This document shows, piece by piece, positions 1,409-3,798 of a stretch of DNA of 10,331 nt. Position numbers and translations under genes: made by a program. This DNA comes from a virus. Under the pieces are notes generated by a model that saw only the letters and a program-made list of their open reading frames with translations, was not told the DNA's origin and did not search any database. The first letter of the stretch is position 1. Each line of letters starts with the position of its first letter. The stretch lies in UHGV virus genome UHGV-1710946. One strand, given 5' to 3'.

Positions 1409-2773
1409 ATGTCTGCATCCCCTCTTGAATCCATGCCAAATTCCCTTAGTGCAGAACAAGCTGTACTTGGTGGCTTAATGCTTGATAACTGCCGCTGGGA
1501 TGAAGTTGCAGATCGTATAGTTGCTGATGATTTTTATACCAGTGCTCATCGTGAAATTTTCAGTGAGATGGAGAGGTTATTAAGTCATGGCAAACCGATT
1601 GATTTGATAACACTTGCTGAAGCACTTGAACAGAACGGTAAATTAGAACGCGCCGGTGGTTTTGCGTACCTTGCGGAGATGTCAAAGAACACGCCCAGCG
1701 CGGCAAATATTTGTGCTTATGCGGATATCGTTCGTGAACGCGCGGTTGTTCGTGAAATGATTTCCGTCGCAAATGAAATAGCCGAAGCTGGATATGCGCA
1801 GGATGGCAGGGGCAGCAATGAATTGCTGGATATGGCCGAGCGCCGCGTTTTTGAAATAGCTGAAAAACGACAAAAGAGCGGTAGTGGTCCAAAAGATATC
1901 GCCAGCATTCTCGATGCAACGGTATCTCGCATAGAAGAGTTGTTTCAGCGACCACATGATGGTGTAACGGGGCTTGATACGGGATTTACCGATCTCAATA
2001 AGAAGACGTCAGGGCTTCAGCCGTCCGATCTCATCATTGTCGCCGCCCGCCCATCTATGGGGAAGACCACGTTTGCGATGAATCTCGTCGAAAATGCCGC
2101 AGTTCGTAACGATAAGCCCGTATTGGTTTTTAGCCTTGAGATGCCGAGCCACCAGCTGATGATGCGCTCACTGGCTTCTCTTGCACGCGTTGATCAGACT
2201 CGTATTCGAACAGGGCAACTTAACGACGAGGATTGGGCGCGGGTTTCTGGCGCAATGGGGATTCTGTTGGACAAGCAGAATATTTTTATTGATGACTCAA
2301 GTGCCCTGACGCCGACAGAGCTACGTTCCCGCGCTCGTCGTGTTTATAAAGAAAATGGTGGTTTGAGCATGATTATGATCGACTACCTGCAACTTATGCG
2401 CGTCCCCGAGCTGCAAGATAACCGAACGCTGGAAATTGCCGAGATTTCTCGCTCACTGAAGGCGTTGGCGAAGGAATTACAAGTACCGGTGGTGGCATTG
2501 TCACAACTTAATCGATCGCTTGAACAGCGTGCGGACAAACGACCGGTAAATTCAGATTTACGTGAATCAGGAGCAATTGAGCAGGACGCAGACCTGATCA
2601 TGTTTCTGTATCGCGACGAAGTTTATCACCCGGATAGCGAAATGAAGGGCATTGCCGAGGTAATTATCGGAAAGCAACGAAATGGCCCAATTGGCACGGT
2701 GAGATTGGCTTTTAACGGCCAATACTCACGGTTTGATAACTATGCTGGTGCTGACTGGCAAGAGGATTATTAA
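1409..2773 (+). CDS. dnaB: DnaB-family replicative DNA helicase (likely a mobile-element-borne paralog/xenolog)
   Basis: 454 aa, collinear with E. coli DnaB over nearly the full length (by eye roughly three quarters identical). Walker A ARPSMGKTTFAMN, Walker B-like IMIDYLQLM, and conserved LSQLNRSLEQRADKRPVNSDLRESG and IIGKQRNGPIGTV blocks. ATG at 1409 is preceded by GGAG 5 nt upstream; the ORF track starts at GTG 1403. The N-terminus is about 15 residues shorter than and divergent from E. coli DnaB. Confidence 0.93.
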   Translation: MSASPLESMPNSLSAEQAVLGGLMLDNCRWDEVADRIVADDFYTSAHREIFSEMERLLSHGKPIDLITLAEALEQNGKLERAGGFAYLAEMSKNTPSAANICAYADIVRERAVVREMISVANEIAEAGYAQDGRGSNELLDMAERRVFEIAEKRQKSGSGPKDIASILDATVSRIEELFQRPHDGVTGLDTGFTDLNKKTSGLQPSDLIIVAARPSMGKTTFAMNLVENAAVRNDKPVLVFSLEMPSHQLMMRSLASLARVDQTRIRTGQLNDEDWARVSGAMGILLDKQNIFIDDSSALTPTELRSRARRVYKENGGLSMIMIDYLQLMRVPELQDNRTLEIAEISRSLKALAKELQVPVVALSQLNRSLEQRADKRPVNSDLRESGAIEQDADLIMFLYRDEVYHPDSEMKGIAEVIIGKQRNGPIGTVRLAFNGQYSRFDNYAGADWQEDY

Positions 2774-3798
2774 TGCAATGGAATGAGGAAAAGCCGATGA
2801 ACATCCTGATCATTGGGCGAAAATTTGAAGCTATCAGTGATGTGAAAACATATACGGAAATGTGGGCTTATAACCTGGCCTGCGCCTTTAGTGAGGCAGG
2901 GGTAACATTGCAATACCATCGTCCATATTCCCCTGGCGTCGAAAGCCCGGAGGATTATGTTGAAGCTGTGTTGACTGCTGCGACCGCATGTTCTGCGAAG
3001 GCCATTTTGGCACCAGGATTGAGGTATTTTACTACGGTACCCAGGGAAATAGGCATGCAACTGTGTCGCCGATTCTCTGGATGGGTAGCCCAGGTATATG
3101 ACGGTTCTATGCTGGATTCGGCACCAGTCGATATTACTTTTACTGTCCGCGATGATACCTGGCGGTACCTGGATAATCCCGGCAGGTTAGAGCGTCATAA
3201 TCGTTTTAACAAACATGTTGGATGGGCAGCGAATCAGGAGCTGTTCCATCTGGAAACCAAAACAGACGATGTTCTGCGTATTTTTGTAGACCACGCGGCA
3301 TTTGATGTTAGTGGGTTTGATCACTCCTTAAGTATCCTTATGAACCTTCAGCGCCTGACCGTTCCGTATGAGGTTACTATTACAGCTACAACTATTCATA
3401 TGAGAACGCTGACCGATGACGGATTGGTTACCATTGAGCCGGGGAATATTTCGGTAACCCCATACAGACGGACTCCGGTACCAGCAACCGAATTTGCAGC
3501 TGAATTGCGTAAGAGTGACATTTTTATCGTTACGCATCCCGAAAGCCTTGGATTAACTGTTCTTGAGGCGGCAATGTGTGGAGCGTTGATATTAACTCCG
3601 CCCGATTGCCTTCCGCCGGATCGCCTGGAGTTGGTGAACCATATGGTTATCAAGTCGCGGATTGATTGGGATGAGGGTATTGCTCGCGTTGATCGCGTGA
3701 AAAATGCTGAAAAGGTCCAGTGTCACACCTGGTCGGCAATTGCGGAAAAGATGCTTGAGACGTTTATCACGCAGAAACCGTCGCGCGGTAACGGATAA
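2773..3798 (+). CDS. Glycosyltransferase-like protein (GT-B fold, GT1/GT4-like C-terminal motif); substrate unknown
   Basis: ATG at 2773 overlaps the dnaB stop (TAATG) with AGAGGA 6 nt upstream. An alternative ATG at 2797 (GAGGA 7 nt upstream) gives an N-terminus MNILIIGRK typical of the first beta-strand of GT-B enzymes. C-terminal motif THPESLGLTVLEAAMCGALILTP matches the E-x7-E-like signature of retaining GT4-type glycosyltransferases. Confidence 0.6.
   Translation: MQWNEEKPMNILIIGRKFEAISDVKTYTEMWAYNLACAFSEAGVTLQYHRPYSPGVESPEDYVEAVLTAATACSAKAILAPGLRYFTTVPREIGMQLCRRFSGWVAQVYDGSMLDSAPVDITFTVRDDTWRYLDNPGRLERHNRFNKHVGWAANQELFHLETKTDDVLRIFVDHAAFDVSGFDHSLSILMNLQRLTVPYEVTITATTIHMRTLTDDGLVTIEPGNISVTPYRRTPVPATEFAAELRKSDIFIVTHPESLGLTVLEAAMCGALILTPPDCLPPDRLELVNHMVIKSRIDWDEGIARVDRVKNAEKVQCHTWSAIAEKMLETFITQKPSRGNG

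Follow-up and report, generated by a model that had tools for sequence, protein, structure and literature searches.

The ban gene of bacteriophage P1, known since the 1970s, encodes an analog of the replicative helicase DnaB and belongs to the operon of the same name. In the prophage expression of the operon is shut off by the C1 repressor (C1/Bof) acting at Oban (Op72), and it is derepressed on induction (GenBank P1 annotation and general knowledge); Ban is able to replace the DnaB of the host, as established by P1 genetics. The gene that follows ban, dbn, is annotated in P1 as 'function unknown, possible glycosyltransferase', in P7 as glt, and by NCBI as 'glycosyltransferase family 4 protein'. 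Here we analyze a ban–dbn pair (positions 1409–3798) in a stretch of 10,331 nucleotides (nt) from the virus genome UHGV-1710946, hereafter called the window. The pair itself is already known, being part of the textbook P1 ban operon. Comparison of the genomic surroundings of Dbn homologs, however, revealed that the conserved evolutionary partners of Dbn are not the helicase but three further P1 proteins, PmgO, PmgP and PmgQ. The reading that we favor, with a probability of about 0.7, is that this distal part of the ban operon carries, in dbn, a GT-B transferase tied to PmgO, PmgP and PmgQ in a glycan module, for which the host envelope is the likeliest acceptor.

The 10.3-kb window is 98–99% identical to P1, RCS47, Escherichia phage vB_EcoM-813R1 and P7 by megablast against phage genomes, with an overall identity of 98.7% to P1, although the match to reference P1 and P7 begins only at position 1038. 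The search against complete Escherichia coli genomes led to the 96-kb IncY plasmid pMTY1586_IncY as the best match (99.5% identity), from which the window differs by 7 substitutions and 3 indels. All ten of its larger open reading frames (ORFs) match PHROGs very strongly. Given this 98–99.5% identity to P1-type phages and pMTY1586_IncY, together with the strong PHROG matches, the window comes from a P1-type (IncY) phage-plasmid of E. coli, genus Punavirus. The annotated order in P1 and RCS47 is Pban/Oban, tRNAs, trnI, ban, dbn, genes 5, 6, 24, 7, 25 and 26, and pmgL–Q. The window shows the same succession of trnI, ban, dbn and the convergent gene 5, nearly identical to P1, with the baseplate and tail genes (5, 6, 24, 7, 25 and 26, by PHROG) on the minus strand from 3845 and pmgL onward behind them. 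The original prediction, made from the letters alone, had rightly placed the pair between a tRNA (trnI, 1047–1122) and phage genes. The ban/dbn region is thus the distal end of the P1 ban operon, composed of trnI, ban, dbn and a terminator hairpin.

Dbn and its evolutionary partners

The dbn gene (2773–3798, plus strand, with an alternative start at 2797) encodes a GT-B/GT4-like glycosyltransferase of 341 amino acids (aa), as compared with 332 aa in P1, and is assigned by PHROG 2518 (773 bits), annotation, structure prediction with AlphaFold and fold search with Foldseek. The product is 94% identical to P1 Dbn over its full length and 97% across aligned columns. When its sequence profile was compared with the PDB, almost nothing was found: one glycosyltransferase matched at E 0.056, and a short N-terminal segment matched KtrA (E 6.9e-5 for the whole chain, ~0.9 per stretch), a match that we take as spurious. 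A fold search was therefore needed. The AlphaFold model, built on the homolog alignment, has a mean predicted local distance difference test score (pLDDT) of 87 and a predicted template modeling score (pTM) of 0.85, and consists of two Rossmann-like domains in the GT-B arrangement.

Foldseek returned 101 PDB matches for this model at E ≤ 1e-3. The best 50 of the 101 are almost all GT-B glycosyltransferases, mostly of the GT4 family, with a few UDP-GlcNAc 2-epimerases of the same fold. The top matches include MshA, sucrose-phosphate synthase, GlgM and PimB' (E 2e-9 to 3e-8), and BshA and lipopolysaccharide (LPS) glycosyltransferases were also found. Among viral models (BFVD), the top matches are annotated as glycosyltransferases. 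The best of them is a Tupanvirus enzyme (A0A6N1NPH0; E 4e-17, TM 0.74–0.79), a glycosyltransferase of the mimivirus type and, phages aside, the nearest structural relative of Dbn in viruses. The earlier proposal that the second gene of the pair is GT-B-like, weak as it is in the sequence, is thus confirmed by the model and the fold search, and Dbn is a soluble two-domain GT-B/GT4-like protein.

A database search gave 26 clusters of Dbn relatives. The alignment comprises 21 homologs, 37–57% identical to Dbn with the exception of a single P1-like copy (97%), and has 28 fully conserved columns, among them E257/E265, D173/H174 and R284. The segment THPESLGLTVLEAAMCGA in the C-terminal domain holds an E-x7-E motif, of which E257 and E265 are invariant in the 21 sequences; E-x7-E is a signature of GT4 enzymes. 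Some members of the family have a precomputed match to the Pfam model Glycos_transf_1 (PF00534). A profile search of 1.84 billion representatives recovered no more than 380 at E ≤ 1e-3, most of them 300–335 aa long with few exceptions, and 133 representatives at E ≤ 1e-30, kept intact at about the same length. With so few matches among so many representatives, Dbn is a member of a small and discrete GT-B family that stands apart from the bulk of GT4.

We fetched the surroundings of every distant Dbn homolog on a usable contig. Searches by tblastn with the P1 proteins found homologs of PmgO, PmgP and PmgQ in all of the non-P1 enterobacterial Dbn loci, at 33–66% identity, and no Ban; the weakest partner homolog is the PmgO-like gene of contig L096, at 26%. 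This co-occurrence extends over five phage or prophage contexts outside the P1 lineage. On four lambdoid-type contigs (L004, L094, L095 and L096), the genes form one contiguous operon, mostly overlapping, just upstream of the terminase genes. Their order is PmgO-PmgP-Dbn-PmgQ in L094 and PmgP-Dbn-PmgQ-PmgO in L096, while in L004 and L095 a 189-aa, weakly GT-A-like gene stands between PmgP and Dbn. This fifth gene (L004 7435–8004, L095 9435–10004) has a weak match to nucleotide-diphospho-sugar transferases and a DxD-like IDAD segment, and has no counterpart in P1. In a 95-kb Citrobacter phage-plasmid type (L006, L007), PmgO-PmgP-PmgQ lies 5 kb upstream of the Dbn homolog. The two genes directly before the Dbn homologs are non-homologous between L004 and L006/L007, and a conserved partner immediately upstream of dbn was accordingly rejected.

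A further context is a syntenic chromosomal island in Serratia plymuthica (L003) and Buttiauxella (L005, L089), with ~71% nucleotide identity between the two. Its order is holin, PmgQ-like, PmgP-like, lysozyme, LysR, Dbn-like, LuxR, a fimbrial operon and PmgO-like, the Dbn homolog lying 3.5 kb past the PmgQ-PmgP pair and PmgO 9 kb further (in S. plymuthica, ACMV5L_01825 for Dbn and ACMV5L_01780 for PmgO). No virion or structural genes were called in this island, which resembles what would be left of the phage glycosyltransferase module after domestication.

In cellular genomes, Dbn-like genes were found immediately behind an MptE-like/WaaZ_KDO_III gene or only a few genes away from one, namely in a kps-type capsule cluster of Colwellia (L097–99) and in two clusters of uncharacterized or glycan-related genes (L104–107). 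The cellular MptE-like partner in L104 shows only motif-level similarity to PmgO and PmgP. On a contig of a giant-virus metagenome-assembled genome (L102), the Dbn relative has as neighbors a GT4-like protein of 725 aa, a GT-A enzyme of the DXD type and an NAD-dependent sugar epimerase. Glycan synthesis is common to all of these contexts, and a Maf/WaaZ-type partner to most. Single-protein scans for more distant viral loci gave no match for the queries P0013 and P0024 and only two remote relatives for P0015, and the alignment-based scan of IMG/VR returned 80 loci, all of them P1-like.

The partner genes themselves are reached at the right-hand end of the window. The pmgO gene (9716–10331, plus strand), encoding a transferase of the Maf/sialyltransferase-like (MptE-like) fold, is present with the first 205 of its 220 codons and ends at the window edge, and pmgP begins at 10276 with 18 codons inside. 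In P1, the tail and baseplate genes split the four-gene set in two: pmgO-pmgP-ppp-pmgQ lies 6 kb from dbn, beyond the baseplate genes, and pmgL–pmgQ are annotated under a late promoter. PmgO shows the MptE-like fold, with Maf enzymes as its best structural match. A comparison by hhalign identifies PmgO and PmgP as paralogs (97.6%, E 3e-12); a precomputed PF01973 match is present in 17 of the 52 PmgO-family clusters listed. The Prokaryotic Genome Annotation Pipeline (PGAP) names PmgP 'motility associated factor glycosyltransferase family protein', and the PmgP profile had no matches in the PDB. The PmgQ profile matches Skp1 alpha-galactosyltransferase (6mw5, E 4.7e-6) and, at E 0.08–0.5, other GT8 enzymes (glycogenin, LgtC), with its DxD, GDQGF and PRPW segments aligned to those of the GT8 enzymes. 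The Pfam matches of PmgQ are weak (one of eight members each), and PHROG calls it 'glycosyltransferase'; by sequence, it appears to be GT8-like with a DxD motif. The automatic names from PHROG and PGAP, which were given independently, thus agree with a transferase identity of the partners.

A table of CRISPR interference results scores ban, dbn, pmgO, pmgP and pmgQ as non-essential, for ban with respect to plaque formation (PMC10695390). In-frame deletions of dbn, pmgO, pmgP and pmgQ also exist; these genes are not among the five essential pmg genes, and their names do not occur in the main text of that work, which deals with the virion proteome (PMC9024508). Thus, dbn is dispensable for plaque formation on laboratory E. 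coli.

The helicase gene and its junction with dbn

The ban gene (1409–2773, plus strand; ORF 1403/1409–2773) encodes the 454-aa P1 DnaB-analog replicative helicase, as assigned by P1/P7 annotation, Pfam, TIGR00665 and alignment. Its product is 99.6% identical to P1 Ban over 454 aa, with equal lengths. Both DnaB domains are present: the N-terminal domain PF00772 (E 2.7e-35, 120.9 bits against a cut-off of 23) and DnaB_C PF03796 (E 3.3e-108, 361.3 bits against a cut-off of 27). Residues 6–452 of Ban align collinearly to residues 24–470 of E. coli DnaB (PDB 6bbm; E 6.2e-234), with ~80% aa identity as read from the alignment. In both proteins the Walker A and Walker B segments read PSMGKTTF and IMIDYLQLM, respectively, and SQLNR and GKQRNGP are likewise unchanged, so that the Walker and sensor/arginine-finger segments are intact. 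The description of a full DnaB-family helicase with intact Walker motifs and an N-terminus some 15 residues shorter than that of E. coli DnaB is therefore borne out, the exact figures being 17 aa in length (454 versus 471) and an offset of 18 residues. A role in defense or anti-defense was considered and rejected: a scan for defense systems with PADLOC gave only a weak generic ATPase match for Ban, and no match for Dbn or for the SPFH protein encoded further upstream.

Ban exceeds the general DnaB model TIGR00665 (573.8 bits, cut-off 385), and falls under the E. coli-type chromosomal equivalog NF005945 (863.6 bits, cut-off 898). In a blastn search with ban, a chromosomal dnaB was found in every one of 5,426 complete E. 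coli genomes, at ~71% nucleotide identity to ban. Copies at least 95% identical to ban occur in 460 records, mostly plasmids, with 469 matching places on plasmids, and the identities are cleanly bimodal (~71% versus at least 95%). Since a separate dnaB exists in all of the 5,426 genomes and ban-type copies are mostly plasmid-borne, ban is a mobile-element paralog of host DnaB, distinct from the chromosomal gene, as had been proposed.

At the junction, the ban stop codon TAA (2771–2773) shares its final A with an ATG at 2773 (TAATG), which opens the 341-aa ORF to 3798. A second in-frame ATG at 2797 (Met9) is preceded by its own GAGGAA Shine-Dalgarno sequence, and all of the non-P1 Dbn homologs begin at the position equal to Met9. 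Among 81 P1-like loci, ban and dbn are adjacent in 80; stop and start overlap directly in 73, an extra ORF intervenes in 7, and one locus is partial. The intervening ORF, of 101 aa (PHROG 12809), has overlapping stops and starts and was found in L079, L080, L085 (about 9699–10004) and four more P1-like loci of IMG/VR. In these seven loci, homology to the window restarts exactly at Met9, which argues that 2797 may be the real start of dbn. Translational coupling of the two genes, as put forward in the original prediction, thus stands only in part: the overlap is present in the sequence, while the functional start of dbn, and hence the 1-nt overlap with the ban stop, is uncertain, given the Shine-Dalgarno sequence of Met9 and the starts of the non-P1 homologs.

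Outside the P1 lineage, none of the Dbn homologs whose surroundings were fetched adjoins DnaB or a replication gene. The adjacency is confined to that lineage, and elsewhere Dbn keeps company with PmgO, PmgP and PmgQ or with glycan clusters. The data therefore support neither a functional helicase–transferase unit nor the proposed replication module: the position of dbn behind ban is a P1-lineage accident of gene order.

The proposed glycan module and rival readings

We propose that Dbn, PmgO, PmgP and PmgQ form a non-essential module of four transferases whose joint action would make or lengthen a short glycan. The ulosonic acid of this glycan would probably come from PmgO and PmgP, with the CMP-ulosonic donor CMP-3-deoxy-D-manno-octulosonic acid (CMP-Kdo), and Dbn and PmgQ would probably attach hexoses from UDP-sugars. 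CMP-Kdo is suggested as the donor because no other CMP-ulosonic donor is known from these hosts, and because no sugar-nucleotide synthesis genes were seen beside the module; genes for nonulosonic-acid synthesis were likewise not seen near it. The acceptor would most likely be a host envelope glycolipid or polysaccharide made at the cytoplasmic face, such as the LPS core. The LPS core is the receptor of P1. A change in the envelope glycan could then lead to receptor masking or surface conversion during lytic growth. An envelope acceptor is favored because the module crosses virion types, persists in an island devoid of called structural genes, and has bacterial relatives in capsule and polysaccharide loci.

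A wider version of this proposal is tentative, and we hold it to be rather doubtful as a whole. It states that an unrecognized four-enzyme glycosylation module, consisting of Dbn, the Maf/WaaZ-like ulosonic-acid transferases PmgO and PmgP, and PmgQ, is present in P1 and in five or more further types of enterobacterial phage or prophage, and that this module might alter a glycan of the host envelope, as by attaching a Kdo-containing branch to the LPS core. Receptors on infected cells and on debris might thereby be masked, or the cell surface converted, and the module may have been domesticated from a prophage in Serratia and Buttiauxella.

Several points weigh against the proposal of an envelope-directed glycan module. 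The activities, donors and acceptors of Dbn, PmgO, PmgP and PmgQ are predictions. Dbn scores 21.3 bits against PF00534, under the gathering score of 26.4, and matches none of the NCBIfam models; P1 PmgO (23.4 bits) and PmgP (20.9 bits) are under the cut-off of the MptE-like model PF01973 (34.6). Profile comparisons with E. coli WaaS, WaaZ and WaaO gave motif-level, non-significant similarity (hhalign probabilities of 0.3–16%); we therefore make no claim of a specific kinship to these LPS-core enzymes, and the data give no specific link between the module and the LPS core. The co-occurrence of Dbn with PmgO, PmgP and PmgQ rests on about six independent genomic contexts and not on a genome-wide statistic. 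The ban–dbn adjacency, for its part, is very stable within the P1 lineage (80 of 81 loci), so that co-expression of dbn with the helicase could still matter. Finally, Maf enzymes, the Skp1 galactosyltransferase and glycogenin all act on proteins, and a protein acceptor fits equally.

This last point keeps alive the reading that the four transferases glycosylate virion proteins (capsid, tail or fibers) and thereby affect stability, adsorption or immune recognition, as in mycobacteriophages. The late promoter of pmgL–pmgQ in P1 and the position of the module just upstream of the terminase genes in the lambdoid-type contigs would agree with it, as would the protein-directed nature of the best structural match of PmgO (Maf) and of the best GT8 matches of PmgQ (Skp1 galactosyltransferase, glycogenin). 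However, the module is common to phages with different virion gene sets, namely the P1 baseplate and tail genes as opposed to a GpA-type terminase, a Phage_portal_2 portal and a Phage_cap_E capsid protein on contigs of the other kind, and it is kept in the Serratia/Buttiauxella island, where no structural genes were called. The occurrence of bacterial Dbn relatives in capsule and polysaccharide loci also speaks against a virion acceptor. The viability of the single deletions counts in the same direction, though a decorative glycan is still compatible with it. Virion or other protein glycosylation thus remains a live rival, since Maf, the Skp1 galactosyltransferase and glycogenin are protein-directed, but on balance we judge a virion acceptor unlikely.

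Far less probable is the reading that takes ban and dbn as one functional module for replication or DNA, in which the glycosyltransferase would act on the DNA of the phage and shield it from restriction, as do the T4 alpha- and beta-glucosyltransferases and the HY126 arabinosyltransferase. The two genes do share one C1-controlled operon according to the P1 annotation, they are adjacent in nearly all P1-like loci with the overlap in most, and the DNA arabinosyltransferase of phage HY126 (9ir0/9iqz) is found at ranks 9 and 12 among the fold matches of Dbn. HY126, however, is one of ~100 generic GT4 matches and is weaker than MshA, sucrose-phosphate synthase and GlgM, and the T4 alpha- and beta-glucosyltransferases are absent from the best 50 of the 101 PDB matches; the structural comparison that had been suggested with GT4 enzymes and phage DNA glucosyltransferases thus came out for the former. 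In the loci examined, no non-P1 Dbn homolog adjoins a helicase or replication gene. Genes for base hydroxylation or hydroxymethylation did not appear beside the module either, whether in the window, in the part of P1 whose annotation was read or at the non-P1 loci. The location of Dbn relatives in capsule and glycan clusters is a further argument against DNA modification. P1 DNA is known for its methylation (Dmt, Mod) and is not known to bear sugars, which also counts against DNA glycosylation. The modification of DNA, one of the targets considered in the original prediction, is therefore not favored, and it is the least supported of the acceptor readings.

A still smaller chance is left to the view that Dbn is a decaying or catalytically dead GT-B relic carried behind ban. 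It would explain why dbn is non-essential and why Dbn stays below the Pfam threshold, and by eye no conserved basic residues follow the first strand of the C-terminal domain, where the conserved sequence is VDHAAFD. Against it stand the 28 invariant columns despite 37–57% identity, the intact length of about 300–335 aa across the 133 representatives at E ≤ 1e-30, the confident fold prediction and the conserved operon partners. The last alternative, that ban is the chromosomal dnaB of an unfamiliar host genus followed by a housekeeping glycosyltransferase, is refuted: Ban does have the full-length architecture of E. coli DnaB at ~80% aa identity, but the whole window is 98–99.5% identical to P1-type phage-plasmids, every protein matches a PHROG strongly, a separate dnaB is present in all of the E. 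coli genomes searched, and Ban scores below the chromosomal equivalog cut-off.

As to novelty, the ban–dbn locus adds nothing new on phage helicases. The side result concerning the glycan module may matter more, as dbn, pmgO, pmgP and pmgQ make up a conserved glycosyltransferase-like set common to unrelated temperate phages and a chromosomal island. Three of the four genes (pmgO, pmgP and pmgQ) are still labeled 'putative morphogenetic', and all four are dispensable in the laboratory. In the literature, we found no paper that treats the four genes as a unit or assigns them a role, and no functional study of dbn, pmgO, pmgP, pmgQ or MptE-like phage genes. The module hypothesis therefore offers a modest new lead in an old model phage. 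It raises a question that is cheap to pursue in the best-studied transducing phage, for which knock-outs exist (PMC9024508): does P1 glycosylate the envelope, the virion or some other target, with an effect on adsorption, superinfection or host range?

Features of this copy, flanking elements and known systems

The window copy of dbn carries an in-frame insertion of net 27 nt (3374–3404, plus strand; VTITATTIHM in place of A), recognized by comparison with P1-type relatives. It is absent from P1, RCS47, 813R1, pMTY1586_IncY and all 80 IMG/VR P1-like loci, and the exact window protein with the insertion is not on record. The insertion sits between the two Rossmann-like halves, at a place where the model has a pLDDT of 70–74 and homologs vary in length. 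Positions 3372–3425 (54 nt) are 100% identical to Subdoligranulum variabile OY725846.1 (54483–54536), a segment of a capsule-type locus in which a BY-kinase-like gene ends, its C-terminus being rich in Tyr, and a CpsB-like phosphatase begins; the right-hand 21 nt of the match are native to both dbn and the S. variabile locus. A tandem duplication was rejected because the inserted sequence is foreign. The insertion is probably a chimeric read or polishing artefact from a gut sample, or else a rare microhomology event.

Two other genes of the window depart from their relatives. Gene 6 (4470–5471, minus strand) has a 15-nt in-frame deletion at 5160 as compared to pMTY1586_IncY and encodes 333 aa, versus 338 aa in P1. 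The pmgM gene (8976–9552), which in P1 encodes a VRR-NUC/PDDEXK nuclease of 192 aa, has a 2-nt deletion at 9231, and the resulting frameshift relative to pMTY1586_IncY and P1 splits it into two ORFs (8976–9236 and 9100–9552), reflecting either a pseudogene or a sequencing error.

Upstream of the pair, the C1-controlled promoter–operator Oban/Op72 is annotated in P1 ~2.6 kb before ban, that is, beyond the window. At the left end of the window, a 66-aa ORF that is hydrophobic by eye (11–211) and an SPFH/band-7 lipoprotein gene (192–1019, plus strand; Pfam Band_7 9.7e-31, PHROG 200 'lipoprotein') stand in the ban transcription unit where reference P1 has tciA-tciB-tciC, an arrangement common to RCS47 and pMTY1586_IncY. 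The SPFH gene shares ~86% nucleotide identity with genes of phage P88 and of Stx-converting phages, and therefore seems to be cargo that the ban operon can exchange as a cassette.

The trnI gene (1047–1122, plus strand; ARAGORN; Rfam tRNA, 64.7 bits) has the anticodon CAU and is variously labeled: Met by ARAGORN and some GenBank records, tRNA-Ile2 in the P1 record (89% identical to ileX), and tRNA-Ile by PGAP in pMTY1586_IncY. AUA codons make up 13.2 per 1000 in the window genes overall and 25–32 per 1000 in genes 5, 7 and 26, a usage that fits a phage-borne tRNA-Ile2 (CAU). The 286-nt spacer between trnI and ban (1123–1408, plus strand), which lies inside the stretch of 98.7% overall identity to P1, contains no annotated feature, Rfam match or promoter-like site; throughout positions 1–4000, one promoter-like site was found versus 5.9 expected from shuffles.

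Between the convergent dbn and gene 5 lies a hairpin flanked by an A-tract and a T-tract (3819–3845), with a minimum free energy of −17.6 kcal/mol (z = −4.8; 0 of 200 shuffles equally stable). It was overlooked by a simple terminator scan because the A and T tracts pair into the stem. This hairpin probably acts as a bidirectional intrinsic terminator that ends the ban operon.

Compared with known systems, the locus is closest to the P1 ban operon itself, which it resembles in a Ban of 454 aa at 99.6% aa identity, in trnI upstream, and in dbn and gene 5 downstream, and from which it differs in the SPFH lipoprotein gene where P1 has tciA–C, as do RCS47 and pMTY1586_IncY. E. coli chromosomal DnaB (PDB 6bbm, 6qel) has the same two-domain, collinear architecture with unchanged Walker A, Walker B and SQLNR segments; unlike it, Ban is 17 residues shorter at the N-terminus, ~71% identical at the nucleotide level, below NF005945 and encoded on a phage-plasmid. 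P1 Dbn and P7 Glt (PHROG 2518) occupy the same position as the window Dbn at 94–97% identity, the window copy differing by the 9-residue insertion at residues 201–210, which is probably artefactual.

The retaining GT4 enzymes (MshA, PimB', GlgM, sucrose-phosphate synthase and WaaG-type) share with Dbn the GT-B fold (E 2e-9, TM ~0.6) and the E-x7-E motif. They are, however, only ~10–13% identical to it and are 360–400 aa long as compared to the 332 aa of Dbn, which fails PF00534 and does not merge with the bulk of GT4. The T4 alpha- and beta-glucosyltransferases and the HY126 arabinosyltransferase likewise have the GT-B fold, whereas no genes of a hydroxymethylcytosine or 5-hydroxycytosine pathway were seen near dbn. 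For the partner proteins, the models are Maf, the CstI/CstII sialyltransferases and WaaZ (MptE-like) for PmgO and PmgP, and the GT8 enzymes LgtC, WaaO/J and glycogenin for PmgQ; unlike these models, the phage proteins are minimal single domains of about 200–230 aa.

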